Positions 2,671 through 63,577 of a stretch of DNA of 64,000 nucleotides are shown here, piece by piece; position 1 is the first letter of the stretch; each line of letters opens with the position of its first letter. The notes below the pieces were generated by a model, which was not told the origin of the DNA, ran no database searches, and saw only the letters and a list, made by a program, of their open reading frames with translations. The position numbers and the translations under genes were made by a program. The stretch comes from an uncultured Planctomycetota bacterium (GTDB lineage: Bacteria; Planctomycetota; Planctomycetia; Isosphaerales; Isosphaeraceae). Where the stretch lies: NCBI GenBank assembly GCA_963845755.1, contig CAWJTV010000009.1, positions 96,001 to 160,000 on the forward strand. The letters are read 5' to 3'.

Positions 2671-2920
2671 GGTGCTCGGTGAACACCAATCCTCATTGGG
2701 TGCTCTGTACTACGAACTTCGAGAATCTTGTTCCCCGTGCACGATTTCATAACGTCTCGAGGTACAAGAGGTTGGGTCGGCAGAAGGCATCGAAAAATTC
2801 TTCTCTGAGCCCTCTGTGACTCTGTGGGGAGTCTCTTTTGATTGGTTGGTTGCGGCTCGGCCGCACTGTGAGCACCAAGTCGGCCCGGCCACGAAGAACG
2901 GTGCTCACAGAGCACCCTAC
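2667..2920. repeat. GTAG-type REP cluster interrupted by a 157-bp hairpin-ended insert
   Basis: GTAGGGTGCTC..GCACC at 2667 and inverted GGTGCTCACAGAGCACCCTAC ending 2920; insert 2709-2865 flanked by CTGT direct repeats. Confidence 0.7.
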
Positions 2921-2932
2921 TGGACCATTCCT

Positions 2933-5900
2933 ATGACCATATCCGACATCTGTATCAAACGCCCGGTCTTCACCTGGGTCCTGGTCGCGATCCCGGTGGT
3001 ACTGGGCCTGGTCTCGTACGGCGAGCTGGGTGTCAACCTCTTCCCGGACGTCGACTTCCCGGTCTGTACCGTGACCACGGTGCTGCCGGGGGCCAGCGTC
3101 GAGGAGATGGAGACCACCGTCACCAAGCCGATCGAGGACATCATCAACACGGTCTCGGGCATCGACGAGCTGCGCTCGATCACGACGGAGGGCGTCTCGA
3201 TCGTGACGGTGCAGTTCCTGCTGTCGAAGGACGGGGACGTGGGGACGCAGGAGGTCCGGGACAAGGTCAACACGATCCTCGCGGACCTGCCGGACGGGAC
3301 CGATCCCCCCATCGTCGACAAGTTCGACACCGGCACGATGCCGGTGATGACGATCGCGGTGTCGGGGCGCCGCGACTTCCGGGAGGTGACCGAGCTGGCT
3401 CGCCGGCAGATCAAGGAACGGCTCGAGACGGTCAACGGCGTCGGGGCCATCAGCCTGGTCGGCGGCCGGGTGCGCGCGATGAACATCGTCCTCGAGACCG
3501 AGAGCCTGGCGGGATACGACCTCTCGGTCGAGGAGGTCCGACAGGCGTTGTTGCGCCAGAACCTCGAAGTCCCCGGCGGCCGCGTCGATCAGGGCTCGCG
3601 CGAACTGGTGCTCCGCACCCTGGGACGGCTCAAGACCGAGCGCGAGTTCAACGACCTGATCATCGCGAATCGCGACGGCTATCCGATTCGCATCCGCGAC
3701 GTCGGCCGCGCCGAGGATTCGTTCGAAGAGCCGCGGTCCGCGGCGCGGCTCGACGGCGTCAATGCTGTCAGCCTCGTCGTCCAGAAACAATCGGGGGTCA
3801 ACACGGTCCGGGTCGTCGAGGACGTGAAGGCCAAGTTGGGCCACCTCCGTGCCGCGCTGCCGCCCGACATCCACACCGAGGTCATTCGCGACCAGTCGCG
3901 GTTCATCAAGAAATCGATCGAGGAGGTGAAATTTCATCTCCTGCTCGCCGCCCTGCTGGTGTCGGCCACCATCCTGCTGTTCATCCGCGACTGGCGGACG
4001 ACCTTGATCGCCACGATGGCCATCCCCACGTCGATCATCCCGACCTTCGTGTTCATGAAATACATGGGCTTCACGCTCAACAACATCACGATGCTCGGGC
4101 TGATCCTGGCCATCGGCATCGTGATCGACGACGCGGTCGTCGTCCACGAGAACATCTTCCGGCACATGGAAGAGGACGGGATGGACGGGATGTCGGCGTC
4201 TCGGAAGGGGACGCGCGAGATCGCCCTGGCCGTGCTGGCAACCAGCCTCTCACTGGTGGTCATCTTCCTGCCGATCGCGTTCATGGGCGGGATCGTCGGG
4301 CGATTCTTCTCCAGCTTCGGGCTGACCGTCGCCTTCGCCGTGATGATGAGCCTGTTCGTCTCGTTCACGCTGACCCCGATGCTCTGCAGCCGGTTCCTCA
4401 AGCTCGAGCCGGTGGAGCCCGGACACGGGACTCATCGGCCCAGGTCGAAATCCGGCTTCGTATACCGGTTCATCGACGGCGCCTATGGCCTGGTGCTCCG
4501 GTCGGCGTTGCGTCACAAGTTCCTCGTCGTACTCCTGACCTTCGTGGTCATCGCCGGCACGGTCCCGATCGGCCGGATCATGGGCGTCTCGTTGATCCCT
4601 CGCGACGACCAGAGCGAGTACGAGATCACCGTGACGACCCCCGAAGGCTACAGCCTGGAGCGGAGCGGTAAGCTCCTGGCCGAGCTCGAGGCGCGGATCT
4701 GGCGGCTCTCGGGGACCCAGCACGTCTTCACGACCGTCGGCCAGACCGAAGGCGGTCGCGTGGTCAAGGGCGAGGGCGACGTCACCCGCGCGACGATCTA
4801 TGTCCGGATCACGGACCTCGAGGAGCGCGAGTCCGCGACCAAGGTTCGCGGCTGGTGGGACCTGCCGGGCCAGGTGCGCCGATTCTGGAACGGTCCCCGG
4901 ATCAACCAGTTCGCCGTCCAGAATGAGGCGCGTCAGTTCCTCGAGGACTATCCCGACCTGCGCGTGAGCGTCAACGACGTCTCGCCGTTCCAGGGCGGTC
5001 GACGGGCCCAGACCTTCCAGGTCAACCTCGCAGGTCCCGACTTGAACACCTTGTCGGAATACGCCGCACCAGCTCATCGTCAAGCTGAAACAGGAAGGCG
5101 GACTGGTCGACCTGGACACGACCCTGTCGCTCCGCAAGCCCGAAGTGCAGGTGATCGTCGACCGCGAGGCGGCCAGCGACCTCGGCGTGCCGGTCGGGAC
5201 CATCGCCGACTCGCTCCGGGTCCTGGTCGGCGGCTTGCCCGTCTCCAAGTTCCGCGACGGGGACCAGCAGTATGACGTCTGGCTCCGGGCCGAGTCCGGC
5301 GACCGAGGGACCCACCAGGATCTCTACCAGATCACCTTTCCTTCGCCGACCGTGGGGCTGGTCAAGCTGGCCAGCCTGGCCAAGCTCGTCGAGGACCGCG
5401 GGCCGACGGAGATCGAACGACTCGGCCGCGAGCGGATCGTCACGGTCCTCGGCAACCCCGAGGGCATCGCGCTGGGCGATGCGGTCGATCGCGCCGAGCG
5501 AATCTTGAAATCGATGAACCTGCCGCCCCAGTATTCCTATGTCTTCACCGGGCAGGCCAAGACCCTGGGTGAGACGGGCTATTACTTCCTGATCGCGTTC
5601 ACCCTGTCGATCGTCTTCATGTACCTGATCCTGGCCGCCCAGTTCGAGAGCTGGATGCAGCCGATCGCCATCCTGATGGCCTTGCCCGTGACCATCCCCT
5701 TCGGCATGCTCTCGCTGGTCTTGTTCCGGACGCCGATGGACCTCTACGCGATGTTCGGCCTGTTCATGCTGGTCGGCATCGTCAAGAAGAACGGCATCCT
5801 CCAGGTCGACGCCACCAACCAGCTCCGGGCCAAGGGTTATCCGCGTCGGGACGCGATCCTCGAGGCCAATCACACCCGGCTGCGGCCGATCCTGATGACG

Positions 5901-6205
5901 ACGGTGATGCTGGTCGCGGCCATGGTCCCCATCGCGCTGGGACAGGGCCCGGCGCCGGTGCGCGGGCCAGCATGGCCAAGGTGATCATCGGCGGCCAGAT
6001 GCTCTCCCTGGTCCTGGCGCTGCTGGTGACTCCCGTGTTCTACTCGCTCCTCGACACGATGACCAACCTGGCGCGACGGCTGGGCATTCGATTCTCGGTC
6101 GAGCCGGCCCCGAGGGTCGCGACCCATCCCCATCTCGTGCCCACGAGGAACGGCGAACACAACGGGAGCGATGTGGAAACCGAGACCGCCGGGCATTACT
6201 CTTGA
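2933..6205 (+). CDS. RND efflux permease (AcrB/HAE1-like); two apparent frameshifts (~5065, ~5955)
   Basis: ISDICIKRPVF, LFPDVDFP, GIVIDDAVVVHEN, VKKNGIL, RLRPILMTT; joins ORFs 2816..5275, 5145..5984, 5972..6205. Confidence 0.92.
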
Positions 6206-6250
6206 GTCGTCCCGGAGGGCATCGGATTCATCCGATCCCGTCGCATCGCC

Positions 6251-7060
6251 TCAACGGCGTCGGCTCTGCGCCGCTTGCGCGCGATCTCGCGCAACGACCG
6301 GACGGCCCGATGATGCCTGGGGGCTTCGCGTCTGGGCGACCACCTGAGAGAACCGCTGCTTGGTCTGGGTATCGATCGCCGCGTGATTGTTCACGACCTG
6401 GCTGGCCCAGTTCGGGTAGGTGGTGACGAGCCGGCTCATCAGCGAGACGAAATAGCCGGCCTCCTTGACCTGTTCTTCCAGGATCCGCTCGACCACCGGC
6501 CGCAAGGGCCGGGCGACGGTCTTCCATCCCTTCGAGTCGACCTTCACGAACGCGTCGATGTTGTGCTGGACCCACGGCGCGTGGTTGCTGTCCTGGTAAT
6601 ACGAGGTGTTCACGACCAGGATGATCCGGGCCTCGACCCGGGCATTGCCGTGGGGGCTGACATAATTCAAGTGTCCCAGCAGGACATGCATGCGGGGCGA
6701 GCGGAGCACGAACTCCCAGGCGGCCGTCGCGCCCGACCCATCCGTGCCCTCATATCGGTTCGGCGCCACCTTCTGGAGCTGGACCGGCGCGTCGCTCAGG
6801 TCTTTCCAGAGGGCCAGGGTCACCGCCGGCTCGTTGACGAGGCTCAGGTACAGGCTCGACGGGCAAGAAAACGAGTCCGGCTCGCCCTGGCGATGGAAGG
6901 TGTGGTCGCGGATGACCTCCGAAACCGTCTCGCGATGCTCTTGCCCGATCTGATCGAGGGGTACGATCTGGGCCGGATCGATGCGACGAGTGCCGAGACC
7001 GGCCCGGACCGGGCACGTCGTCAGCCCCAGCGCGACCATCATGGCCATCGCAACCGGCAT
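6251..7060 (-). CDS. Exported hypothetical protein
   Basis: Globular-looking ORF with signal-like MPVAMAMMVALGLTTCPVRA; start uncertain. Confidence 0.65.
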   Translation of the reverse strand: MPVAMAMMVALGLTTCPVRAGLGTRRIDPAQIVPLDQIGQEHRETVSEVIRDHTFHRQGEPDSFSCPSSLYLSLVNEPAVTLALWKDLSDAPVQLQKVAPNRYEGTDGSGATAAWEFVLRSPRMHVLLGHLNYVSPHGNARVEARIILVVNTSYYQDSNHAPWVQHNIDAFVKVDSKGWKTVARPLRPVVERILEEQVKEAGYFVSLMSRLVTTYPNWASQVVNNHAAIDTQTKQRFSQVVAQTRSPQASSGRPVVARDRAQAAQSRRR

Positions 7061-7600
7061 ATTCTTCCCAGCAGTCGGAAATCGGCGGACTACCATCCCG
7101 ATCATGGACGACTCCGTCGTAGTGAGGACGCGTTCCTCCGCGCGGCGGCGGTAGGAACTCCGCTCCCGCCCCACGCGCCCGCCATTTTCGTTACCATTCT
7201 CTGATCGGATTCTCGGACTCGTTTCCTGACATCCCGCGCGACCCGATCGATTTCGATTTCCGAGCCCGCTATTCCTCAAGATCCACGCGATCGTCCAACC
7301 GTCGGAATGCGGACGCGGTTCCCGCCTCGGCCGTCGGCCGGTTCCCTGCCGGCCCAGCCGTTGAGGAATTCCCGGCTCCGCCGCAGTCGCTCGAACGTCG
7401 TGCGCACGAATCGCGTCCGAAATTGCTGTCGAAGCCTGTGTTAAGGCGATCAGACACTTCAACGGAACGCGACGCGTTTTCCCGTATCTCGAAGGAATTC
7501 CCCCGAATCGGGACCGGGTCCAGGATCCCCCCGTTTACGCGATCCGCCGACGCGGATAGGCTGGATCATGGAGTCCCCGCGGCGATCCCATCGATCTCGA

Positions 7601-8776
7601 ATGAACAGCCAGAGGACCGTGTCCTTGAAGACGACCACGACGCGGCTTTGGCCGGTATGTGGCATCACGGCGGGTGCCGCCGCGATGGCCGTCATGCTGG
7701 CCGTATCGTTGATCTCGGCGGGTTGCGATTCCAACTCGTTCGCCCCACCGCCGCCCCCGGAATTGAAAGTGCCGGCCAGGCCGGGTTTCGCGGCCACCTA
7801 CGAGGGTGCAGGCAGCGCGGCGTCATCCTCCGTCCCGTCCGTGGGAAAGCCTGCGAGTCGGAGTGTGCGGATCGTGGAATTGATCCTGGCCCGGCCGGCA
7901 AATGACGACCGCGTTTACTTGGACCATCTCCTCCGCCAGGACCTCGCAACGTTCCGGATTCCCGTTCGGCTCACCCAGCCCGATCCACAGAAGCGGTCGT
8001 CGCCCGAAGACCTGGCCGGCGCGATCCGTGCCGCCGTCAGCCGGGGCGTCGCGGGCTTGGTGGTTGAGCCCACCGAGGATGAGGTGGTGGTCAACGCCCT
8101 CTACGAGGCCGTCGGCCGGGGCGTCGCGGTCCTCCTGCTCGATCGGCCCGTCCCCGCTCGCGGCGGCAAGTCGATCCCCTTGATCGAGTACACCGCATTC
8201 GACGACGTGGGGCGGCAGCTCGTAACGGCCGCCCTGGAGGCGGGCCCGAGCTTCAAGCCAGCCAGGCCCGGGCGGATCATCATCCTCCACCACCGCTCAG
8301 ACGACCCGTATCTCGAACGCGGCTTCCAGTCGCTGGTCGGACCCTGTCGGACGGCCGGCAAGCCGATGGAGATCCTCGAATTCGACGGGAACGCCGAGCA
8401 AGGGATGGCGGTGATGAAGAAGTCGCTGGAGGCCGATCCCGGTCTGGAAATCCTCCTGGTCGACGATGCAGTCGGCGTCTCCGTCGGTTTCCGTATCCAC
8501 TTTGATCGGATCAAATCCAACGGCGCTGGATTCGTGCTCGCGGGCTACCTCTCCAACGATTACCGGAGCAGCACGTTCCTCGATCTCATGTACGCCATGG
8601 GCGATCGCTCGGTCCAATCCTATGCGTCGAAGACGTCCCTGGCGATCCGGAGTCTGATGGAGTCCAGGGCGGTGGGAGATGTGGTCGAAGTCCCCATCAC
8701 ATTCCGCCAAAGGTCAACGAACCCTAACCCTACCTCCAAGGCGATAGAAGCTCCCCCTACGGCACGGAAGCCGTAA
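7601..8776 (+). CDS. Lipoprotein with LacI/sugar-type periplasmic substrate-binding fold
   Basis: Lipobox ISAGC; AIRAAVSRGVAGLVVEP and GRGVAVLLLDR resemble type I periplasmic binding proteins. Confidence 0.7.
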   Translation: MNSQRTVSLKTTTTRLWPVCGITAGAAAMAVMLAVSLISAGCDSNSFAPPPPPELKVPARPGFAATYEGAGSAASSSVPSVGKPASRSVRIVELILARPANDDRVYLDHLLRQDLATFRIPVRLTQPDPQKRSSPEDLAGAIRAAVSRGVAGLVVEPTEDEVVVNALYEAVGRGVAVLLLDRPVPARGGKSIPLIEYTAFDDVGRQLVTAALEAGPSFKPARPGRIIILHHRSDDPYLERGFQSLVGPCRTAGKPMEILEFDGNAEQGMAVMKKSLEADPGLEILLVDDAVGVSVGFRIHFDRIKSNGAGFVLAGYLSNDYRSSTFLDLMYAMGDRSVQSYASKTSLAIRSLMESRAVGDVVEVPITFRQRSTNPNPTSKAIEAPPTARKP

Positions 8777-9150
8777 TGGCTGACCGCTGGGCGACGTCCG
8801 GACGCCCGCCGGCGGGCGTCCCGGAGAGTGTCTTGCTCATCTACCCACCAGGGTCTGACCTATCGTATTGCTTCCCACGTGATGGAACGCGTAGGATTCT
8901 TTGGTTGGATGCACGTTGGTCCGGATCGCAAATCCCTGGCTGAGGTTGGTCGTCCGCGGGTGATCGGACAGAATGATGTCGATTTGCGTGGTTTTCTGAT
9001 CAGCCGAATCCGAGCCGATCACCGATGGCGGCTCCAACGGAGTCTTGCCCTACCGGTCAAGTTTCCACAATCCTTCGAATCATGCGAGGTCACATCCCGT
9101 CTCCGCGATCAGCGATTTCGCCCACTATTACGGGGAGGACGGCCTTGACG

Positions 9151-13602: not shown

Positions 13603-14112
13603 ATGAATCGATTCAACAGGGTTTTTTCGAAAATAGGGCGATCGGTCGCGGTCGCCTTGAGTGTCTCAGTTGCGGTGGTCGTCCTGGGATGCGGCGGTGA
13701 CGATTCCGGTCTGGCCCGCCGATACAAGGTCACGGGCAAGGTCACCTACAAAGGTGACTCCCTTGCGCGCGGAACGGTGAATTTCATACCCACTAAACCA
13801 CCGGCCCCCGAAGGCCGGGCGGCTTCGGGCGAGATCAAGGATGGTTATTACTCGCTGACAACGACGGGGGACAATGATGGCGCATTGCCTGGTGATTACA
13901 ACATCACTGTTGTCTCCGTCGACCTCGATTTGAAGTCGGCTTCTGACGCGAATCCCGAAGGAATCATCCACCAGGGAGACCCCGCTCACCAGAAGGCCAT
14001 CAAGGGTGGCAAGAGTCTCATCCCGACCAAGTACAACATGGCTGAGACCTCGGGATTGAAAGCCACCGTCAAAGCCGAGTCGAACCAGATCGACCTTCCC
14101 TTGACGGACTAA
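13603..14112 (+). CDS. DUF1559-associated lipoprotein (carboxypeptidase-regulatory-like beta sandwich)
   Basis: Lipobox VLGC; VTGKVTYKG, DGALPGDY, IPTKY..TSGL motifs. Confidence 0.85.
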   Translation: MNRFNRVFSKIGRSVAVALSVSVAVVVLGCGGDDSGLARRYKVTGKVTYKGDSLARGTVNFIPTKPPAPEGRAASGEIKDGYYSLTTTGDNDGALPGDYNITVVSVDLDLKSASDANPEGIIHQGDPAHQKAIKGGKSLIPTKYNMAETSGLKATVKAESNQIDLPLTD

Positions 14113-48760: not shown

Positions 48761-49059
48761 ATGACCGACCCCTATGAGACCTTGAGCCTTCCCCCGGATG
48801 CCGGCGAAGCGGAGATCCGGCGGCGATACCTGGAACTGGTCCGGGAGTTCCCGCCGGACCGGGCCGCCGGAGCGATTCGCGATGATCCACGCCGCATACG
48901 AGGAGCTGCGCGACCCGGCGCACCGGTTGCAGTCGCAGATCTTCCAGTGCGAGACCACGGTCGAACTCGCTCGAGACGCTGGCGGCCGACTTGAGACGCC
49001 GGCTGCGGACCGCCCGGCTCCCGGTCGCCAGCCTGTTGAACCTTGTGGACTCGCCATGA
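48761..49059 (+). CDS. Small J-domain (DnaJ-like) protein with FPPD in place of HPD; apparent frameshifts
   Basis: MTDPYETLSL..EIRRRYLELVREFPPDRA / PERFAMIHAAYEELRDP; ATGA overlap with grpE. Confidence 0.8.
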
Positions 49060-50045
49060 ACGACACCCATTCAGACGATGTCAACGGCCTCCTCGAACGC
49101 TTTCGAGAATGGCTCGACGCCACCCAGATCGAGGCCGGCAACCTCCAAGGCTCCGGCAATGGTACCGGCCCGGAATCGGGCGATCCCCGGGACGCGGAGC
49201 ACCTGCGCCCGGAGCTCGGCCTGATCCAGTTGACCGAGGAGTTCACGGCGCTGCGTCACGAGCTGAAGCTCCAGACCAAGAGCGGCCGGGGGCTCCTCGA
49301 GCAGGCGGAGGCCATGATCGCCGCCATGCGCCAGGCCATCGAGCAGTTCCGCTCGGTCGAGTCCAAGGAGTCTCAGGCCGCCTGGGCCTCCGGCAAGGTC
49401 CTGGCCGAGGCCCTGGGCGACCTGGATGAGGCCCTCGACCGCGGCCGGCGTGAGATCGAGAAGGCCAGGCGGCGCATCGCCGAGGAGTCGATCCAGGTGC
49501 TGGTCAACGCGCTCGATGAACGGTTCCGCCGGCAATCGTGGATTCGCCGCCGGATGACGGGCGGATACCACGGACAGGTCCTCGACGTGGTGCGGGAAGT
49601 CGGCCGGACTCGCCGCGCCCTGTTCGACTCGCTCCTCGAAGGCTACGGCCTGATCCAGAACCGGCTCGCCCGCGCGATGAAGTCCGAGCGAATCGAGCGC
49701 ATCCCTTGCGAGGGGAACCCGGTGGATCCGGAACGGATGATGGTCATCGAGGTCGTCGAGGACTCGGGCCACCCGCCAGGGACGGTGGCCAAGGAGCTTC
49801 GGCGCGGATATACCTGGAAGGGCCGGCTGCTCCGTTACGCGGAGGTCCAGGCCGTCAGCACCGCGCATGGCCCGGATCCGGAGACCGACTCCGACGGCCC
49901 GGATCCCGGCGGCGGCGAATCGGGGCTCGCAGGCGGCGGCGAGTTCGACGACATCGACAACGGCCGCAACGGCGACGACGAGAACGACACCGGCATCGAC
50001 CTGGCGATCGCGACCGACCGGAACGCACCGGCCGGCTCGGATTGA
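49056..50045 (+). CDS. grpE: GrpE-family nucleotide exchange factor
   Basis: Long coiled coil, then IPCEGNPVDPERM..V....HPPGTVAKELRRGYTWKGRLLRYAEV. Confidence 0.85.
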   Translation: MNDTHSDDVNGLLERFREWLDATQIEAGNLQGSGNGTGPESGDPRDAEHLRPELGLIQLTEEFTALRHELKLQTKSGRGLLEQAEAMIAAMRQAIEQFRSVESKESQAAWASGKVLAEALGDLDEALDRGRREIEKARRRIAEESIQVLVNALDERFRRQSWIRRRMTGGYHGQVLDVVREVGRTRRALFDSLLEGYGLIQNRLARAMKSERIERIPCEGNPVDPERMMVIEVVEDSGHPPGTVAKELRRGYTWKGRLLRYAEVQAVSTAHGPDPETDSDGPDPGGGESGLAGGGEFDDIDNGRNGDDENDTGIDLAIATDRNAPAGSD

Positions 50046-50091
50046 TCCCATCCCGCCAAGAATCACCGCTCGAGTCAAGGAAATCGCAGCT

Positions 50092-51903
50092 ATGGATCAA
50101 GAGACGATCATCGGTATCGACCTGGGGACGACCAACAGCGAGGTCGCCGTCATCCGCGACGGCGAGCCGGTCGTCCTCGACGACGGCGACGGCGAACCGA
50201 TCTTACCTTCGGTTGTCGGCCTGGATCCTCAGGGCCATCTGCTCGTCGGCAAGGCCGCGCGCAATCAGTACGTCCTGGCGCCCGAGCGGACGATCCGTTC
50301 AATCAAGCGGAAGATGGGCCAGGAAACGACGGTCGCGCTCGGCGACAAGAAGTACACACCGCAGGAGATCTCGGCCATCATCCTGCGGACGCTCAAGTCC
50401 CGGGCGGAGAAGGCGCTAGGCCGCCCCGTCTCGAAGGCGGTGATCACGGTCCCGGCGTTCTTCAACGATGGGCAGCGGCAGGCCACGCGCGAGGCCGGCG
50501 AGCTGGCCGGGCTGGAGGTCGTCCGGATCATCAACGAGCCGACCGCCGCGGTGCTCACCTACGATCCTCACCCCACCGATATGGAACGGCTGCTGGTCTA
50601 CGACCTGGGCGGAGGCACCTTCGACGTCTCGCTGGCCCAGGTCGAGAACGGCGTCGTCGAGATCCAGGCCAGTCACGGCGATACCCAGCTCGGCGGCGAT
50701 GACTTCGACCAGTTGCTCCTCGACGATATCTGCGACGAGTTCGCCGAACAGCACGGCGTTGACCTCCGGGCTTCGCTGGGGGCCAAGGCCCGGGTCCTCC
50801 GCGCCGCGGAGGATGCCAAGAAGCGCCTCTCCTCCGAGGCGGTGACCACCGTGGAAGAGGAGTTCATCGCCGAGAAGGACGGGCGGCCGTTGAACCTGAA
50901 ACTGGAGATCTCGCGCTATGACTACGAGGAGCTGATCCGCCCGTTGCTGATGAAGACGCTCACCTGCCTCGACCAGGCGCTTTCCGATGGGAAGGTGCAG
51001 GCCAACCAGATTGACAAGGTGATCCTGGTGGGCGGTGCAACCCGCACGCCCCTGGTCCACGAACTGCTGGAAGAGCGACTGGGACGGCCGGTCCACAGCG
51101 AGATCGAGCCCGACCTGGCCGTGGCGCTGGGGGCGGCCGTCCAGGGGGGCCTGATCTCCGGGATCGACGTCGGCCCGATCCTGGTCAACATCACTCCGCA
51201 TACCCTCGGCATCGAGGCGCTGGGCGAGCTATACGGGTTCATGTCAACCTACCATTTTTCGCCGATCATCGAGCGCAACAGCCCGTTGCCGATCAGCCGG
51301 ACCGAGATTTACTCGACGGTCGTCGATAACCAGCCGGGGGCCGACATCCGGATCTTCCAGGGAGAGAACCCCGACACGCGCTACAACACACTGGTTGGCC
51401 AGTTCAAGGTGGAAGGGCTGGCCAAGGTCCCGGCCGGCAATCAGATCCTGGTCCGGCTGGACCTCGACCTCAGCGGGATCCTCAAGGTGACGGCGACCGA
51501 GCGTGCCACGGGCCTGGCCAAGCACGTCGTGATCGACAACGCGATGGAGCGATTCCGCACGCGCCAGCGCAGCGACGCGGTCGACCGCCTCGAGGCGGTC
51601 ATGGGTACGGTCGAGGGAGCCCAGGGCCTCGCCTTGCCCGGCCCGGCCGGAGCGGGCGAGTCCGCCGAGCCGGCCGCCGCCGCCGGCGAGATGGAACCGT
51701 CGCTCCGCCAGGCCATCGATGCAGCGTCGGCCGCCATCGCCAAGGCCGAAGGAGTCCTCCCCTCGGCGAACGCCGAGGACGCCCGCGAGCTGGACTCCAT
51801 GCTGATCGACCTCCGCGGTGCAATCCAGAACCGGTCCGAGGAGCAGATCCGTACCGCCACCCGCGAGATCGAGGACCTGATCTTCTACCTCGAGGACGCC
51901 TGA
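50092..51903 (+). CDS. Hsp70-family chaperone (non-canonical DnaK paralog)
   Basis: GIDLGTTNS, VITVPAFF, IINEPTAA, YDLGGGTFDVS, LGGDDFD, LVGGATRTP; divergent linker PILVNITPHTLG. Confidence 0.95.
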   Translation: MDQETIIGIDLGTTNSEVAVIRDGEPVVLDDGDGEPILPSVVGLDPQGHLLVGKAARNQYVLAPERTIRSIKRKMGQETTVALGDKKYTPQEISAIILRTLKSRAEKALGRPVSKAVITVPAFFNDGQRQATREAGELAGLEVVRIINEPTAAVLTYDPHPTDMERLLVYDLGGGTFDVSLAQVENGVVEIQASHGDTQLGGDDFDQLLLDDICDEFAEQHGVDLRASLGAKARVLRAAEDAKKRLSSEAVTTVEEEFIAEKDGRPLNLKLEISRYDYEELIRPLLMKTLTCLDQALSDGKVQANQIDKVILVGGATRTPLVHELLEERLGRPVHSEIEPDLAVALGAAVQGGLISGIDVGPILVNITPHTLGIEALGELYGFMSTYHFSPIIERNSPLPISRTEIYSTVVDNQPGADIRIFQGENPDTRYNTLVGQFKVEGLAKVPAGNQILVRLDLDLSGILKVTATERATGLAKHVVIDNAMERFRTRQRSDAVDRLEAVMGTVEGAQGLALPGPAGAGESAEPAAAAGEMEPSLRQAIDAASAAIAKAEGVLPSANAEDARELDSMLIDLRGAIQNRSEEQIRTATREIEDLIFYLEDA

Positions 51904-55748: not shown

Positions 55749-58700
55749 TCAATCCGGATCGCCGGCCAGCACGAAGGCGGCCCAGTAGTACGGCGCGGCG
55801 TAGGGGCGGTCATCGTCATCGCCGGGGGGAACCGCGTCGGCGAGCTTGACCGGCTGACGGGCCTTGGTCCCCTTGCCGCGCTCGACGCCTCCCGAGAGTG
55901 CGGCGGCCACCGCCAGCACTTCTGACCGGCGCAGCCCGCGCAACCATACCTTGGCCTCGCGGAGTGCCTCGGCCTTGGACAGCGGGCCGGTGAGTCCGGG
56001 GCGGCGACCCAGCAGGTTGGCGTAGAACCGTTGCATCAAGAGCGCCGTCGCCGTGTCGTCCACCTTCCAGAGCGACAGGCAGACGCTCCGGGTTCCAGAC
56101 ATCAACAACGCCTGGGTGAACCCCACGAACCCCTCGCCGCCCTGATTGCGCCCAGGGCGGTCTCGCAGGCCGAGAGCGTGACCAGCTCGGCCTTCAGCTC
56201 CCAATCGTGCTGGATTTCGCGGACCAGGAGCCGGCCGTCGAAGACCGGCTTGTGACTGAGGGCTTGGTCGAGCGGGTCGGGCAGGCCGGTCTGGGTCAGG
56301 ATCACCGCCGAGTTGGTGGGGATGCCTTCGTCGATCACGCCGTGCGTCGCCAGGTGGATGAAGCCATATCGGCCCAGTTCACCCGATGTAGCCAGGCGGT
56401 TGAGCTCGGGCTCGCTCACGTCGCTTCCCAGCAGGATGTGGGTGGGCCGGTCGTCCGATTTGAAGAGTTGATCTAGCGCGGCGACCTCGTAGCGCGTGCC
56501 CGGCAACGGGGGGAAGTCCTCACCGCCGGATCGGGCCGCCACCAGCACCTGATGCAGCTTGCGCTGCTCGGCGATGGCCGCGGGTGCCGGCCGGGGGTCG
56601 ATCACCACGCCGAGCTTGCCGGCTGCCAACTCGCGCCGATCGATTCGGCCCTCACGCCAGACCTCGACCGGGACGGGCTGACCCGGCTCGGAAGCCGCCT
56701 TCAAGTCTTCAGGCTTATTCAAGGCCGTCCCATTGTAGCTCAGGAGCACATCGCCGGGATTGAGGCCGTGTGCGGCGGCGTTGGAGCCGGGCACGATGAC
56801 CTTGACCAGCAGGCCGTGGTCGGGCAGCGGCTGAGGCTGGTTCGATTGGGCGGGCGGCTCGAAGACCGGGTCGCCCACGGCCAGCAAACCCGCATGGCGG
56901 TCCGGACGGGGCTGTTCGCGCAGGTACTTGAAGACGGTGGCTGAGGGGGCGTAGCTGACGGTCCGGTTGTCGTCGTCGGCCAGGAGTGCCTCGATGGGAA
57001 TGCCCACCAGGTCGCGTGAGGGGAGGACGATCAGCCGCCGGGCTGGCGGCAGGCCCTCGGCCGAGGCACCAAGGGCCTTGGCCAATCGCTCAATGCGTTG
57101 GGTGCGCAATCGCTCGAGGAGTCGCTGGATGTCAGCCGAGCCGGCGCCGGGTCGGCGCCGCAGTTCCGAGCGGATCTGGCCTGCGAGCCCGGTGTCCTCG
57201 TTGGTCCACAGCCCATTCGCACCGGTCCCGGCGATCGGCACCCAGGATGGGATACCCCGCGAGCGGACCACCACGCCCCAGTGTTCGCCGTCGGGGTCGG
57301 CCGCGCTCGGGCCACTCGATGGGATATCAACCCAGGCGACCAACGCGGCATCGGCGGGCAGAGCGGCCTGGATTTCCGGGAGCGTGGCGATCCGGCCCGC
57401 CAGGGCGCCGTATTCCTGGTCGAGCTTGCTCTGAAACTCGCCCAGGGCGATGCTGGCCAGCTCGCGCTGACGCTTCAACTCCTCGAATCGCTTGGCCCGC
57501 TCGGCCTGGTCGAGATTCTTGGGTGTGGATTCCACCAGCTTGTCGAGCCGTTCCAGCTCAATCGTCAATTCGCGGAGTCGGGTGCGCTCACCGGGTGCCA
57601 GCCGCCGGTCGTGGCGTGCGTAAAGCTCGTCGAGCAGGCCGCGGCCCAGGTCCTCTTCCAGGTATTGCCACGCCTCGGCGGGCTGACCGAGCCGGGCCAG
57701 CACGGCGGCCAGGCCAGGGCGCGGTCCCCCCTCTCTCAGGCCTATGCGTTCCAGGCCGGTGAAGGCAACTGGGAGCCTGGCCGTGTCCAGACTTTTCACC
57801 GCACTCAGTAATCGGTCGCGCGCCTCGAGGTACTTCCCCTGGGCGTTGAGATTGAACGCCAGGCTGTGGTAGCTTCGTGAGGTATCGGGGTGATCGTCCG
57901 TGAGGAAGTGGCGACGGATCTCCAGCGCCTTCTCGTAGAGGGGCTGGGCCGCCGCGTATTTCCCCTGGGCCTGGAGATTGGCCGCCACGTTGTTGTAGCT
58001 TGAGGCGGTGTCGGGGTGGCCGTCGGTGAGGAGACGGCGGCGGATCTCCAGCGCCTTCTCGTAGAGCGGCTGGGCCGCCGCGTATTTCCCCTGGGCGTTG
58101 AGGTTGAACGCCACGTTGTTGTAGCTCGTGGCGGTTAGGGGTGGTCGTCGGTGAGAAGGTGGCGGCGGATCTTCAGTGCCTTCTCAGGAGCGGCTGGGCT
58201 GCCGCGATAGTTCCCCTGCGCGTTGAGATTGCCCGCCAGGTTGTTGTAGCTTTCGGCGGTGTCGGGATGGTCGTCGGTGAGGAGGCGGTGGCGGATCTCC
58301 AACGCCTTCTCGTAGAGGGGCTGGGCCGCCGCGTATTCCCCTGCGCGTTGAGATTGTACGCCACATTGTTGTAGCTGAGTGGCGGTGTTGGGATGGTCGT
58401 CGGTCAGCAGTCGGCGGCGGATCTCCAACGCCTTCTCGTAGAGGGGCTGGGCCGCCGCATATTTTCCCTGCGCGTTGAGGATGACCGCCAGGTTGTTGTA
58501 GCTCGTGGCGGTGTCAGGGTGGTCGTCGGTGAGAAGGTGGCGTAGGATCTCCAGCGCCTTCTCCAGGAGCGGCTGGGCTGCCGGATAGTTCCCCTGCGCG
58601 TTGAGATTGCCCGCCAGGTTGTTGTAGCTTTCGGCGGTGTCGGGATGGTCGTCGGTGAGGAGGCGGTGGCGGATCTCCAACGCCTTCTCGTAGAGGGGCT

Positions 58701-59373
58701 GGGCCGCCGCGTACTTCCCCTGCGCGTTGAGATTGTACGCCACATTGTTGTAGCTGAGGGCGGTGTCGGGATGGTCGTCGGTCAGCAGTCGGCGGCGGAT
58801 CTCCAACGCCTTCTCGTAGAGGGGCTGGGCCGCCGCGTATTTCCCCTGCGCGTTGAGGATGACCGCCACGTCGTTGTAGCTCGTGGCGGTGTAAGGGTGG
58901 TCGTCGGTGAGGAGGCGGCGTAGGATCTCGAGCGCCATCTCGAGGAGCGGCTGGGCCTGTGCGTACTTGCCTTGGGCATAGAGGCTTCGTCGCTTGCTCA
59001 TTCAAGGTTTCGGCTGATTGGTAAGCGACTCGATCCTCCTTCGACATCGGGGCAACCCGGCGTAAACCCTTGAGGAGCCACTCCGCACTCACCGTCTCGA
59101 AGTGTTTCGGCCCTTGGAGTCGTCGCCGCAAGGCAAGCAGTTCCTCGGCTCTGGTTATCGCGTCGTCCCAGCGGTCGGCCTGGATGCCACCTCGATGGCC
59201 TTGTCCAGCTCCTCCGCCTTCTTGGCGTCATCGCCGGTCAGCTTCCGCAACGCCGGCGCTGCGGCCTGGGTTTCTTTCGGTGACGTCGTCTGGGCGGTCG
59301 CGGGCCAGGCTGGGAATTCGACCGCGAGTCCGATCAGCAGACCCAAGTGGAACAGGGTGCGAAGCGATTTCAT
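55749..59373 (-). CDS. Secreted TPR-array + CHAT (caspase-like) protease with inserted PDZ domain; several apparent frameshifts
   Basis: Signal [28 protein letters not shown]; ~9 42-aa TPRs; IHLATHG and LVTLSACET dyad; [18 protein letters not shown]. Confidence 0.9.
57830..58980 (-). repeat. Intragenic 126-bp tandem repeat array (TPR units) with a 378-bp higher-order duplication
   Basis: Matching variant words 378 bp apart (58471/58849, 58231/58609). Confidence 0.9.
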
Positions 59374-59493
59374 GATGGGCCTCAATCGAAGTCGGACGGG
59401 CTCTCCAGCCGGACGCGGCAGAAGAGTCGTGCTCGAAAACTTGACAGATTGGAGGACGTCGGCTGGAAAGCCTGATCTACATGTGGGACCGAT

Positions 59494-61437
59494 TCACGGG
59501 CCAGCCGCCGGCTCGACCGGGAACGCTTCGAGGGTCACGGCATCGATGCCTGGCAAGCCGCGGAGCCAGATCGCCAGCTTCGCGGCCGGCTCCCCTGAGC
59601 CACGCGTCTTGGAGCCCTTGGCTCGCGTGCCGGCGGGGGCGTTGGCGAGCAGCGGCTGAGGGCCCAGGTCGTCGTTGTGCCACACGACTCCCGGCTCGCA
59701 CGCCAACCCTGCCGCCCACGGCATCGGACCGTGCATCCGCTTCCACTCGCGATACGACGGCAACGGCTTGTGCGACACGACCAGCGCGAAGGCGTACAGG
59801 CCGGCCCCCTCGCTCAGGCGGTACCTCTCGTCGCTCTTCTCGGGGGGCGGATACAGCGGCTGTTGTTTGCGGGGCGGTCGGCGTGTCCTCGTCGTCGGGG
59901 TCGCAGAGCTCGTCGGTGCCGTCGGGGCGGAAGGCGATCAGGAAGGCATAGGCGGGTTCGGAGAGCTCCGCACGCACGGTCACATCGTCGTCCTCGTGGG
60001 CCGCGAACGATTTCGGCCCAGGATCCCGACTCGTGTCCGGTCAAAGTGATTCGCGTCAAGCTTGGGGAAATGGGGGATCTCGAAGCGGGTCACCCGCAGA
60101 TCGGCCTGAGGGTCGGACCTCGGCCTGGACGCTGGTTCCATGACCGCTTGCCGTGCGATCGCACCCGGTCCTGTGAGGTTTTCTCCGATCGTGGCCAGAA
60201 CATCCAGGCCGACAGGAGCAGGATCAGGGATGGCGGTGGTCCCGAGCATCACCTCGGCTGCGGGATCAGCGGGGAACGCTGCAAGGGCGCGGCGCATCGC
60301 GTCGGCCGATGCGAACCGCGATCGCGGGTCGGCCTCCAGGGCCTTCAGACAGATCGCCTTCAGACTCGGGGGACGTCGGCGTTCTCCAGGACCGAGCGGT
60401 CGAGGTCGCAGCGGCGGGCCCGGTCCCACGACTCCTGATACGACTCGGCCTCGAACGGGCCCTTGCCGGTCAGGAGGAAATACAGCAAGCCTCCCAGGGC
60501 GAAGACGTCGGACAATGACCGGATCCGGTCGAGATCGACCCGCGCCTGCTCGGGGGCCATGTACGCGAAAGTACCACCTTCGGATCGCGTGGTGGCATCG
60601 GACCAGGCGTCCTGCTGCCAGGCCAGGCCGAAGTCGATCAGGCGCGGCCGGCCGGTCTCGTCGATCAGGACATTCGCCGGCTTGATGTCCTGGTGGACGA
60701 TCCCGCGTCCGTGGGCGAAGGCGACCGCGCCGGCGACTTCGGCGACCAGGGCCGCGGCCTGTCGTGGCGTGACCGACTGCTCGCGAGCGAACTGGGCCAG
60801 GGTCCGGCCCCGGACGTACTCCATCACCAGGTAGGGGCGGCCCTCGTGGAAATCGAGGTCGTGGATCCGGACGATGTTCGGATGCTCCAGCTCGGCGAGG
60901 CGCTGGCCTTCGGCCACGAGCTCGGAGCGGCCGTTCGCGTCGATCGGTTGGTTGGCCAGCTTCAAGACCAGGTCCCGGCGCAGCTCGGGATGCACGACAC
61001 GAAAGACCTGGGCCTGGCCTGATCGGGGAAATCCCCCGACGACCAGGTACTTGCCGATTGCCGCCGGTATGGGTGTTTCATCGGCGGTGCTCGGTCGGTT
61101 CGGCTCGAGGTCGGCGGGTCGCGGTTCCCCATCCGGCCAGGGCTCGGTCGCGGACGGCAGTGTCTGCGTCGGAGCCGAGCGGGGACTGGCCTTCGGTGGA
61201 GGGAGGCGAGCCGTCGCACGGAGCCGAGCTCGGCTCACGGTCGATCGTCACCGGACCCGACGAAGCTGGGCCCGGATCGATCGCGCGAATGGCCGACAGC
61301 TCGGACCGCAACTGGTCGAGCCGTCCTCGGCAATCGGGACAGTCGTGCAGGTGCGCCCGCCGTTGTTCGGAAACCGGCTCGCCGGAGAGGACCTCCAGCA
61401 GCTCATGTTCCACGGGGCAGCGAATCGATGGGCTCAT
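59494..61437 (-). CDS. Ser/Thr kinase with N-terminal anti-sigma zinc finger and C-terminal DUF4384-like domain; several apparent frameshifts
   Basis: AHLHDCPDC; VLK, HQDIKPANV, DFG, YMAPE, SDVFALG; VTVRAELSEPAYAFLIAFRPDG. Confidence 0.85.
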
Positions 61438-62062
61438 CCCCCAGCTCCTCGGCGAGTGCGGCACACTCCGTTCGGACGGCTTTCAGGACACGCGAGGCGT
61501 AGACGAAAACGACCTGGGTGGAGATCCCCAACTCGGCGGCGATGGCCGAGCCGGGCCGATTGCGGAGCAGACGCTGCTCGAAGCAGGCCCAGGCGGTCGA
61601 TGACGTGACCGACCGGACCCGCGGCAAGGCTCGTTCCAGGATTTGCCAACGATTGATCTCGTTCAATTCCCGCTCGACCTTGCAGCTCTCCGTCTCGCTG
61701 GCACGGTGGAACCGATTTACCCACTCCTCCTCGACCCGCCGGCGCGCCTTGACCCGCCGGGCCTCGTCGAGCAGGGCGGAATAGGTCAACGTCCAGAGAA
61801 AAGAGCGGAATCGGCCGCGTTTGAGGCCAAGCTCCAACGTCGGCAGCGACCGCAAGAGCCGGATGAACACCTCCTGGATCACGTCATTCGCGTTGTGCTC
61901 CTTGAGGCCCTGATTGCGGAGGTAACGCGCGAGCAAGGGCTGGTAGAAGTGGTAGAACTGGCTCCAGCACGCCTCATCCGTGCGATCGCGGACGCGCGCG
62001 ATCAGTGACGGATTGGTGTGGAATTCCGACTGGTCTGTGTCGGTTTTCTCGGTTTCCGACAT
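61403..62062 (-). CDS. ECF RNA polymerase sigma factor (planctomycete kinase-associated type)
   Basis: TNPSLIARV..WSQFYHFYQPLL; DVIQEVF; GRFRSFL; IAAELGIS..VFVYASRV; overlaps kinase start. Confidence 0.92.
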   Translation of the reverse strand: MSETEKTDTDQSEFHTNPSLIARVRDRTDEACWSQFYHFYQPLLARYLRNQGLKEHNANDVIQEVFIRLLRSLPTLELGLKRGRFRSFLWTLTYSALLDEARRVKARRRVEEEWVNRFHRASETESCKVERELNEINRWQILERALPRVRSVTSSTAWACFEQRLLRNRPGSAIAAELGISTQVVFVYASRVLKAVRTECAALAEELGDEPIDSLPRGT

Positions 62063-62453
62063 GTGAGGATGGACTCCAAACCGTCCAACCTGGGATTCGC
62101 GGCCTCCTACAACCGGATCGTTATCTTACCTCAGTTCACCGAAGAAAGCGTTCGAAAAACGGCGGATTCCAGGAATCCCACGACGATTCAGATCCGACGT
62201 TCAAGCTCATCCCATGCATTCATACGCTTCATGAGTGACCTTTGGCCTTTCCCCTCCTGATACGCAGGCAACCTGAGAACCTAACGTCGCATCTCGAGCC
62301 CGGAGGCTGGTGCCGTTCTGAGCCGGTCAACGGCCGTAGAAGGCCCCGGTCCACGTTGGCCCGCTCACATCAACTTCATCATCACGAAGATCCAAGAAAG
62401 ACGCTCGCAAGAGGGATCAGCGACCCAGGCGGCTGTTCAAGTGCAGGTCCCCA

Positions 62454-63524
62454 CTACCTCGGCTCCGTCCGATCGCTGGCAAAGAGGACGTACCGGCCAT
62501 CCGGCGAATAAGCGAGCGCCGTGATCTTGTGGTCGAACCCCTCGGGCTCCAGCCGTCTCGGCGGATCGGGGCGACCGCGCAGGACCGAGTAAAGCGCCAT
62601 GCCCCGGGATTCCTCCAGGCCGAAGACGCAACGGCGCGTGCTCGGCGAGTAGACCGGATAATGCAGTTTCACGTCTCGTCCATTTTCCTTCTTCCAGAGG
62701 ACTTCCTTGATCTTGCCGTGTGCCGGGTCGCCCACGTCGATCAGGGCGAGGGTGTCGCCCGCGCCGACGTCCTCCGAGCCGATGGCTGCGACGATGGTCT
62801 CGTCGCCGGCCCAGTTCGGTACTGTGTAAATCTGATGACCGGGGATCCGGAGGACGCGGCTCTTCTCCGGCCTGGCGTCCATGATCGTCACCTCGCGAAC
62901 CGCGGTAAAACTAATGATCATCAATTGGCGACCAAAGGGTGACCATTTGGGAAACCCGTATGACCCCAGCAGGCGACGTTCCAAACCGTCGGCCCGCATC
63001 ATCCACACACCCGATTCGGCGTTTGGCACGGCGCCGTCGTTGAGGAGGAACGAGATGCGATCATTCGTCGGAGAGAAGGTCGGGCAGTTGCCGGGTCCGA
63101 GGTCAGTCAGCACCAGGCGACCTTCGATCAACTCGAGCGCCTTGAGATGCGTCAGGTTGTAGTTGCTCCCCGGCGAGGCGTCGTAGAGGATCTTGCGGCC
63201 GTCGTGCGACCAGGCGGGCGAGCTGCATTGGGTGAATCCGGGATCCGGCTGATCGGCGATCAGAGTCACCTCGCCGTTCGTGACGTCAATCATGTACAGT
63301 CCGAACCGGTCGGCCGCGACCGTCGGCTTCGCGGGGTGTCGCCGGAGCTGCTCGACCAGGAGGCTGACGGCCTTCTCGGGAGTCGGCTCGCCAGCCTTGA
63401 GTTGTCGCCGTTCTGCCGCCTTGGGAGCTTGAGCCGAGTTCGGCTCCTGGGCCTGCATCGGTCTCGAGGCGGCCAGTACGATCGAGAGCCCCAGCAGGGC
63501 CTGGATTCTCGCATTCGTCTCCAT
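62454..63524 (-). CDS. Exported TolB-like beta-propeller (PD40 repeats)
   Basis: Signal peptide; PAWSHDG, PTFSPTND, PKWSPFG, AYSPDGRY; AAGGAGG RBS. Confidence 0.85.
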   Translation of the reverse strand: METNARIQALLGLSIVLAASRPMQAQEPNSAQAPKAAERRQLKAGEPTPEKAVSLLVEQLRRHPAKPTVAADRFGLYMIDVTNGEVTLIADQPDPGFTQCSSPAWSHDGRKILYDASPGSNYNLTHLKALELIEGRLVLTDLGPGNCPTFSPTNDRISFLLNDGAVPNAESGVWMMRADGLERRLLGSYGFPKWSPFGRQLMIISFTAVREVTIMDARPEKSRVLRIPGHQIYTVPNWAGDETIVAAIGSEDVGAGDTLALIDVGDPAHGKIKEVLWKKENGRDVKLHYPVYSPSTRRCVFGLEESRGMALYSVLRGRPDPPRRLEPEGFDHKITALAYSPDGRYVLFASDRTEPR

Positions 63525-63577
63525 GGTCAACCTCCTTCTTCGAGCTACCGGGCTCTTGCATTTCTTGCGACCCGATC

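Follow-up and report, generated by a model that had tools for sequence, protein, structure and literature searches.

The window analysed here is a stretch of 64,000 nt (positions 96,001 to 160,000 of contig CAWJTV010000009.1, assembly GCA_963845755.1) from an uncultured planctomycete of the Isosphaeraceae. Between positions 55749 and 62062 of the window, three co-directional genes lie on the minus strand. They encode a sigma factor of the extracytoplasmic function (ECF) type, a protein combining an N-terminal zinc finger, a Hanks-type kinase, one transmembrane (TM) helix and a DUF4384-type C-terminal domain, and a protein with a signal peptide, tetratricopeptide repeats (TPR), a PDZ domain and a CHAT caspase-like protease domain. 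The cassette is interpreted as a split variant of the DdvS-DdvA signalling system of Myxococcus xanthus; the comparative support for this assignment is good, we infer the cleavage step, and the window copy is of doubtful integrity.

The sigma factor gene (62062..61403) is an intact open reading frame encoding 219 amino acids. Its product matches Pfam Sigma70_r2 (E 3.6e-10) and, over residues 33-197, the NCBIfam model TIGR02937 (sigma70-ECF) with 46.5 bits against a cut-off of 42.9, which places it among the ECF (group 4) sigma factors; region 4 gave no separate match in the Pfam search with this protein. The segment of region 2.2 that is D-A-x-D/E in relatives reads NAND in the window, and Ser and Thr are absent from it. 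The sigma genes of a genome from the same genus (G001) are only 54% identical.

The second gene, whose start is ATG 61437, shares 35 nt with the end of the sigma gene (stop codon 61405-61403). Its N-terminal segment of about 55 residues (61258..61437) has the arrangement C7...H29xxxC33xxC36, that is, the HxxxCxxC motif of zinc-binding anti-sigma (ZAS) domains with an upstream Cys ligand, and all four ligands are invariant in the 11 aligned fingers. In a profile search of the PDB the top matches, although weak, were the anti-sigma factors RslA (3hug_B, E 0.021) and RsiW (5wuq_C, E 0.025), with DdvA (8rlz_A) ranking seventh (E 0.19). All 15 sigma-linked kinases have the finger (the 13 of the sigma-anchored set described below plus L022 and L023), and neither of two sigma-less kinases does (L047 and L048). 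Given the invariant ligands, the anti-sigma structures at the top of the match list and the co-occurrence of finger and sigma gene, the segment is read as a CHCC-type zinc anti-sigma domain, which very probably holds the sigma factor inactive.

The finger is followed, in a second reading frame, by a linker rich in Ser, Thr and Pro and by the kinase domain (60363..61247; Pfam Pkinase, E 5.1e-39). The catalytic Lys (in VLKLA), the Asp of the HxD motif and the Asn (both in HQDIKPAN) and the DFG motif of Hanks-type Ser/Thr kinases are all present, and HQD (60695-60687), DFG (60635-60627) and APE (60557-60549) can be read directly from the sequence; the Gly-loop region reads GGFPRSGQAQ. The residues corresponding to K134, D224, N229 and D242 are kept in all 63 kinase relatives. 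Since HQD is found in 45 of these 63 and HRD in only 11, the non-RD state (HQD in place of HRD) is a trait of the family. The end of the kinase domain and the cytoplasmic juxtamembrane part (60250..60380) lie in a third reading, the break falling at a C5 run (60372-60368). The single TM helix LILLLSAWMFWPR (60190..60250) is readable only in another frame between two breaks, and in an alignment with an intact relative this stretch (~60248-60190) falls on the TM helix. A periplasmic linker and the DUF4384-type ectodomain (59497..60189) follow, spread over three frames.

An AlphaFold2 model of the intact relative at locus L031 (614 residues, 63-row alignment, mean predicted local distance difference test score, pLDDT, 84.7) shows helices at 9-16, 23-31 and 33-55, which give the finger a three-helix fold, then a disordered stretch (57-92), the kinase, a long TM helix (352-388), a second disordered stretch (392-417) and, modelled with confidence, a domain rich in beta structure (424-601). 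Hydropathy, family comparison and this model of a relative are the basis on which signal peptide and TM helix are assigned here. A pair of Cys residues in the periplasmic part is conserved in 62 and 59 of the 63 kinase relatives, respectively, as expected for a domain located outside the cytoplasm.

Assignment of the C-terminal domain of about 200 residues to DUF4384 relies on relatives. Pfam DUF4384 (PF14326) gave no match among the window pieces, in which the domain is split by a frame break. It scores above its cut-off of 27 bits in L027 (31.2), L040 (31.1) and L042 (33.6) and below the cut-off in L032, L035, L036 and L039. The ectodomain of L031, which is of the window type, has no Pfam match; a search of the ESM Atlas with it ranked DUF4384 clusters first (0.92, 24 of 30 matches). 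The window ectodomain itself was recognised with the family hidden Markov model (HMM), of which it covers positions 432-591 in two frames. Its fold is a generic immunoglobulin-like sandwich, the best structural match having a VIA Z of 7.2 (root mean square deviation 3.7, 128 aligned residues). Foldseek with the ectodomain model (mean pLDDT 69.7) returned no match at E <= 0.001, only immunoglobulin- and fibronectin type III-like sandwiches that gave no functional lead, and no Csx30 chain was among the fold-search matches listed.

The third gene is separated from the kinase gene by a gap of 110 nt and has its own start (ATG 59373, with an in-frame TTG at 59385) and signal peptide (59290..59373); by a crude hydropathy rule, 44 of 58 family members have signal-peptide-like N-termini. 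In the encoded protein, the signal peptide is followed by a helical region, by nine TPR units of 42 residues each (57830..58957; nine tandem 126-bp units with a 378-bp higher-order repeat), by a PDZ insert and by the CHAT domain. The PDZ domain (56645..56845) lies within the CHAT region and scores 27.0 bits with PDZ_6, exactly at the cut-off of 27 (residues 437-487 of a 670-residue piece); in a PDB profile search the family profile likewise matches PDZ chains of an RseP homolog and of DegP-like proteins. The CHAT domain (55749..57094; PF12770, 95.5 and 88.6 bits in two frame pieces) contains the His (56344-56342, in HLATHG) and the Cys (56167-56165, in LSACET) of the catalytic dyad, and a frame break occurs just after the Cys. 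The corresponding residues, H277 and C337, are invariant in the 65 aligned relatives. Kinesin-light-chain TPRs and PDZ chains dominate the PDB matches of the family, and no CHAT structure was among the best 60. As no promoter motif was seen in the 110-nt gap, the CHAT gene is probably co-transcribed with the genes upstream. No close ortholog of the window kinase or of the CHAT protein was found, the best being about 47% identical.

The original prediction for this locus is therefore confirmed in part as an observation. It was right that the sigma and kinase genes overlap, that the kinase gene opens with an HxxxCxxC finger, that the kinase is non-RD (HQD) with an atypical Gly loop, and that a TPR-CHAT protein with an intact His/Cys pair and a signal peptide follows, the signal peptide being judged from hydropathy and family comparison. 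That the kinase ends in DUF4384 holds by way of the family HMM, the relatives and the ESM Atlas, and not by a Pfam match in the window pieces. The TM helix said to appear after repair of two compensating indels exists, as do the indels, but the two genes contain about 12 breaks.

Conservation of the gene order was assessed in a sigma-anchored set of 22 loci, obtained from planctomycete assemblies by a pattern scan with five related sigma proteins. A kinase gene directly follows the sigma gene in 13 of these loci, and eight of the 13 kinases have a DUF4384-type C-terminus (L027, L031, L032, L035, L036, L039, L040 and L042). In seven of these loci a TPR(-CHAT) gene in the same orientation comes next, the contig of L027 ending within the TPRs, and in the eighth (L036) the kinase gene is followed by a gene for a secreted trypsin-like peptidase. 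No same-strand CHAT gene follows any of the five sigma-linked kinases that end differently. The remaining loci have only a finger (L026 and L037), an HtrA-like gene (L033), a degenerate finger and an S41-PDZ gene (L041) or nothing (L025, L029 and L038) after sigma; L045 ends at the sigma gene and L046 is a 31-residue match. The genome to which the window belongs contains six cassettes, namely, besides that of the window, a pair on contig C11, a tandem pair on C13 and a single one on C29. The linkage of the three genes is thus conserved, as the original prediction had anticipated. In metagenome protein sets, 92 kinases with the common ectodomain were found, and the CHAT-PDZ part has 1214 matches among long proteins at E <= 1e-20; eight same-size contigs in both listings hint at contigs shared by the two groups. 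Replacement of CHAT by other protease classes (trypsin-PDZ at L033, S41-PDZ at L041) was considered as support for a site-1 role and given a lower weight, because L033 lacks the finger and the finger of L041 is degenerate; L036 is the only clean case.

Several loci differ in detail. Two tandem TPR-CHAT genes follow one kinase gene at L035 and L039 (two each) and at L032. Stand-alone DUF4384-type frames without a kinase occur at C13:5244-5859 (minus strand), between the kinase and TPR-CHAT genes, and at L035:19842-20213 (plus strand), where the frame comes after the second of two TPR-CHAT genes; decoys, adaptors or additional substrates are conceivable roles for them. At L023 (G029:C1:6708700-6720000), positions 2485-8795 of the plus strand encode a related sigma factor and then a finger-kinase with a DJ-1/PfpI ectodomain, and the next gene encodes a 1353-residue protein with five DJ-1/PfpI domains, so that the ectodomain again matches the neighbouring protein, though in a different family.

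The kinase and the exported protease also occur together without the sigma factor. A profile search with the ectodomain (E <= 1e-8) of 301 sampled planctomycete genomes gave matches in six genomes, including the genome of the window. Six match sites lie outside that genome, two of them strong (E ~1e-22; G026 and G126) and four weak; no CHAT gene is near the four weak sites, one of which is a 3.6-kb contig. In G026 and G126, which belong to other families, a kinase with this ectodomain is directly followed by a gene for an exported TPR-CHAT protein, in one case with a lipoprotein-type signal. Because the pair is found without sigma factor and finger in two other families, the DUF4384-type kinase and the exported TPR-CHAT protein represent the conserved core, to which the sigma factor and the finger appear, from gene content, to have been added as an output module in one lineage.

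Direct contact between the two partners was examined by folding the CHAT-PDZ part of L031 (473 residues) together with residues 392-614 of its kinase. The interface score (ipSAE) was 0.42 (0.42, 0.45 and 0.40 in separate runs), as compared with 0.00 for the best control, the runs agreeing in at least 80% of contacts and the partner pLDDT being at least 78. The mark used for this score was reached by 116 of 157 solved complexes and by two of 215 mismatched pairs, and at values of 0.60 or below only by 18 of the 157 solved complexes and by both of the passing mismatches. The modelled complex thus supports the pairing of CHAT and ectodomain weakly. Together with the gene linkage, it makes it fairly likely that the two are direct functional partners.

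An ECF-type promoter-like motif, CGTTAGGTTC-N11-GCGTATC (62259..62286, minus strand), lies about 195 nt upstream of the sigma ATG. Similar motifs are present upstream of related sigma genes in L026, L027, L032, L037, L033 and L041 and precede the own-genome paralogs at C13:16902 and C29:9665. As a means of finding the regulon the motif was rejected, its genome-wide count being equal to that of controls, and it was kept as a positional lead. The gene immediately upstream of the sigma promoter region (62454-63530), likewise on the minus strand, encodes a secreted PD40/TolB-like beta-propeller protein. A scan of 54-64 kb of the window gave no Rfam family match.

Among known systems, DdvS-DdvA is the closest, and the window cassette is a split form of it with a kinase and DUF4384 added. 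In DdvA, a CHCC zinc anti-sigma domain of three helices lies in the cytoplasm and is joined through one TM helix and a flexible linker to a TPR-CHAT part in the periplasm; the CHAT dyad faces the linker of the partner and is proposed to cut the juxtamembrane linker of DdvA itself, and after removal of the TPR-CHAT part DdvA is degraded by RseP (PMC11506125). The same paper puts forward CHAT-based site-1 cleavage as a hypothesis and records fusions of this kind only in Myxococcota and one Comamonas (PMC11506125). The two systems share an ECF sigma factor, a three-helix CHCC zinc domain, a single membrane-spanning helix, a disordered juxtamembrane linker and, in the periplasm, a TPR-CHAT part with a His-Cys dyad. 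In DdvA the TPR-CHAT part is fused to the anti-sigma domain, whereas in the window cassette it forms an exported protein of its own that contains a PDZ insert, and the anti-sigma protein has in addition a Hanks kinase and a DUF4384 ectodomain; unlike for DdvA, no CBASS or CRISPR regulon is in view. A DdvA-like single polypeptide can be set aside for the window, as finger and TPR-CHAT are encoded by separate genes 110 nt apart, and likewise in relatives.

Type III-E Craspase (Csx29, Csx30, Csx31 and RpoE) similarly ties a TPR-CHAT protease to an ECF sigma factor through a partner cut in a flexible linker, and one group of Csx30 C-terminal domains is DUF4384 (bioRxiv 10.1101/2022.08.17.504292). 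Craspase is described there as cytoplasmic, activated by RNA through Cas7-11 and devoid of a kinase, whereas the protease of the window cassette has a signal peptide. The cassette is not a Craspase: the protease is exported, no CRISPR-like array was among the seven tandem-repeat rows of the window, a search which did not extend to Cas7-11 in the whole genome, and PADLOC gave no match with the CHAT pieces. PADLOC matches of the kinase (PD-T4-6, mad6 and PglW) were rejected as indicating a defence role, being generic matches to a kinase domain.

In the sigma-E/RseA/DegS/RseP pathway, a PDZ-bearing periplasmic protease cuts a single-pass anti-sigma factor and a site-2 protease follows. The cassette shares with it a PDZ-bearing protease and a single-pass anti-sigma protein, and M50 site-2 proteases are encoded in its own genome. 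It differs in that a caspase-like enzyme takes the place of the trypsin-like one, the anti-sigma domain forms one protein with a kinase and cleavage is a hypothesis.

Adjacent genes for an ECF sigma factor and a membrane Hanks kinase are common in Planctomycetes, and the Ser/Thr-kinase-linked groups (ECF43 with EcfP-PknT and EcfK-PknS; the planctomycetal ECF59, 61, 62 and 217) are described as typically lacking a co-encoded anti-sigma factor (PMC7826278, PMC8999054). In ECF43, according to the second of these sources, the DAED of region 2.2 is replaced by uncharged Ser/Thr (PMC8999054). In contrast, the kinase of the cassette starts with an anti-sigma-like finger and its sigma factor keeps acidic residues. 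Because its region 2.2 has no Ser/Thr substitution at the DAED position, the sigma factor is not of the ECF43 type, whose binding to core polymerase depends on phosphorylation. Actinobacterial ECF54 resembles the cassette in having a conserved CHAT protease gene beside the sigma gene; the context comprises CHAT, subtilase and carboxypeptidase genes, proteolytic control is proposed, neither an anti-sigma factor nor a kinase is present, and the protease would degrade the sigma factor itself (PMC8999054). In the literature covered, which did not include Jogler 2012, Wiegand 2020 and the supplement of PMC7826278, neither the finger-kinase-DUF4384 protein nor its association with an exported TPR-CHAT protein was found to be described.

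On these grounds the cassette is tentatively proposed to be a planctomycete transmembrane signalling system that works by CHAT site-1 cleavage and sigma release. The predicted topology fits, with the finger and the kinase inside and the DUF4384 domain and the signal-peptide-bearing CHAT protein outside. The finger would sequester the sigma factor, and the exported protease and the DUF4384 ectodomain would be direct partners. CHAT would become active when the TPR and/or PDZ parts sense a periplasmic cue and, as the site-1 protease, would cut either the ectodomain or the disordered linker next to the membrane; the membrane stub would then be clipped by a site-2 protease, and degradation of the finger would release the sigma factor to switch on its own operon via the upstream promoter-like motif. 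The kinase would provide a second output, based on phosphorylation, which would be the sole output in the sigma-less relatives. That the partnership of CHAT and ectodomain consists of a proteolytic cleavage leading to intramembrane proteolysis is possible, though doubtful. The original prediction, which had envisaged a CRISPR-independent extracytoplasmic analogue of Craspase in which CHAT acts on DUF4384, thus finds partial support: linkage, topology and the printed analogy agree with it and modelling of the CHAT-DUF4384 complex separated from the control, but the complex score is weak, the idea is already in print for DdvA, and the pair occurs without a sigma factor as well.

Several observations weigh against sigma release by CHAT cleavage. 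The kinases of G026 and G126 are accompanied by neither the finger nor a sigma gene of this family; hence sigma release cannot be the general purpose of the pair, as both strong matches outside the genome lack it. The finger of the window and those of L031 and L040 are not scored by Pfam zf-HC2 (PF13490), and that of L036 reaches only 15.1 bits against a cut-off of 22.2. No conserved motif was found for the juxtamembrane linker in the family consensus. The promoter motif has eight matches genome-wide, a number expected by chance (6, 7, 11 and 17 in shuffled and reversed controls), so that only its positions are suggestive. The linkage counts are not independent, because the loci are relatives; among the five sigma-linked kinases with other C-termini only L028 and L044 are clean negatives, L030 and L043 ending about 1.4 kb after the kinase gene, and L034 lacks the DUF4384-type end and nevertheless has a convergent TPR-CHAT gene. 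The complex fold score is weak and was reported with no interface. Finally, the kinase and CHAT genes of the window contain about 12 frame breaks in ~5.7 kb, a density roughly five times that of essential genes of the assembly, and a Trp (AIWLRGL; 59560-59590, minus strand) occupies the position of the second Cys of the periplasmic pair, the first being kept.

The same components could instead form a non-proteolytic relay, in which the TPR-CHAT protein or its ligand binds the DUF4384 ectodomain and switches the kinase, which then phosphorylates its own linker, the finger or the sigma factor, so that the latter is freed or activated, and CHAT serves another substrate. The catalytic kinase residues that are invariant in all relatives and the disordered Ser/Thr/Pro-rich linker between finger and kinase are in line with such a relay, and the sigma-less pairs must signal through the kinase. 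It also has a precedent in the control of the zinc anti-sigma factors RshA and RseA by PknB in mycobacteria (PMC8999054). However, region 2.2 lacks the Ser/Thr that marks ECF43, the majority of the kinase relatives are non-RD, and invariance of the CHAT dyad in all 65 relatives argues that proteolysis matters; the relay is considered unlikely. Another arrangement would make the protease an output: the sigma factor and the anti-sigma kinase would sense an envelope cue, and the TPR-PDZ-CHAT protein would act as a quality-control or remodelling effector having no contact with DUF4384. Sigma-E, which drives degP, is the model for this. Probable co-transcription of the CHAT gene is what it would predict, and an HtrA-like gene follows the related sigma gene of L033. 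In the genome of the window, a similar motif (CGTAAGGTTTC..GCGTATCAC, C26:227140, minus strand) lies 37 nt before a 552-residue frame for an HtrA-like protease of the same kind as that at L033. Against this arrangement, the protease gene tracks the type of ectodomain and not the sigma factor, being present after eight of eight sigma-linked and two of two sigma-less DUF4384-type kinases and, on the same strand, after none of the five sigma-linked kinases lacking that domain (two of which are cut by contig ends); the complex fold also speaks, weakly, for contact. We regard it as improbable. CHAT cleavage followed by sigma release is retained as the preferred reading. In a wider version, taken as a whole and distinctly unlikely, DUF4384 would serve caspase-like CHAT proteases specifically, as a recognition module or as a substrate, and the cassette would be a case of ectodomain shedding from a receptor kinase that doubles as anti-sigma factor, a single cut by the PDZ-gated exported protease would launch both the kinase and the sigma outputs, DdvA and Craspase-Csx30-RpoE would derive from a widespread envelope pairing of CHAT with DUF4384, and kinase-linked ECF groups of planctomycetes would hide an anti-sigma domain in the kinase N-terminus.

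A separate question concerns the window copy alone, whose breaks may be real and mark a decaying paralog of an expanded family rather than a working system. The kinase family HMM (63 relatives, length 597) covers positions 4-591 in the window in five significant pieces and the TM piece, which implies at least six breaks; the TPR-CHAT family HMM (65 relatives) covers positions 16-1193 of 1193 in five pieces, with about six breaks, among them a compensated pair within the TPR array. In the same assembly (14.27 Mb, 49 contigs, 87.9% complete), five breaks were counted in ~12.8 kb of essential genes: one in rpoB (C34:79366-83015), two compensating ones in rpoC (C34:567489-571586), two in gyrA (C11:955025-957483) and none in ileS (C28). 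The higher density in the cassette, the loss of a nearly invariant ectodomain Cys, the remnants found elsewhere (the truncated kinase of L026 and the degenerate finger of L041) and a break in the TPR-CHAT gene of the relative G015 (L031) are what decay would produce, and the window copy may be non-functional. On the other hand, since rpoB, rpoC and gyrA are also broken, indel errors in the assembly are certain. One break of the window maps cleanly to the C5 run, the others not being placeable to the base. Polishing would be difficult with a 126-bp tandem repeat in the TPR array and six paralogous copies of the cassette in the genome. Neither in-frame stops nor large deletions were seen in the kinase and CHAT genes, and the window pieces span both family HMMs from one end to the other. 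Assembly error is therefore the likely origin of the breaks, and decay is rather unlikely. Elsewhere in the window, genes for GrpE and Hsp70 (DnaK) lie at 48786-51900 (plus strand). The Hsp70 frame shows no match to its profile before position 101 and has ~300 nt in common with the GrpE frame, which looks like a further frame break in an essential gene. In L031, the TPR-CHAT gene changes frame once between the TPR and CHAT parts (13700-13850, G015:C145), in a many-contig assembly rated 99% complete, and the family consensus is continuous through this position.

If correct, the proposed mechanism would provide a naturally split, trans-acting version of a CHAT domain serving as site-1 protease. 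For DdvA the site-1 idea could not be put to a test for want of its signal; here, the protease and its proposed substrate are separate proteins and can be mixed in a tube. DUF4384, which is found repeatedly next to caspase-like proteases and also in Csx30, would thereby gain a function. The planctomycete kinase-linked ECF sigma factors could then have a built-in anti-sigma domain, and phosphorylation, regulated proteolysis and sigma switching would be joined in one receptor.

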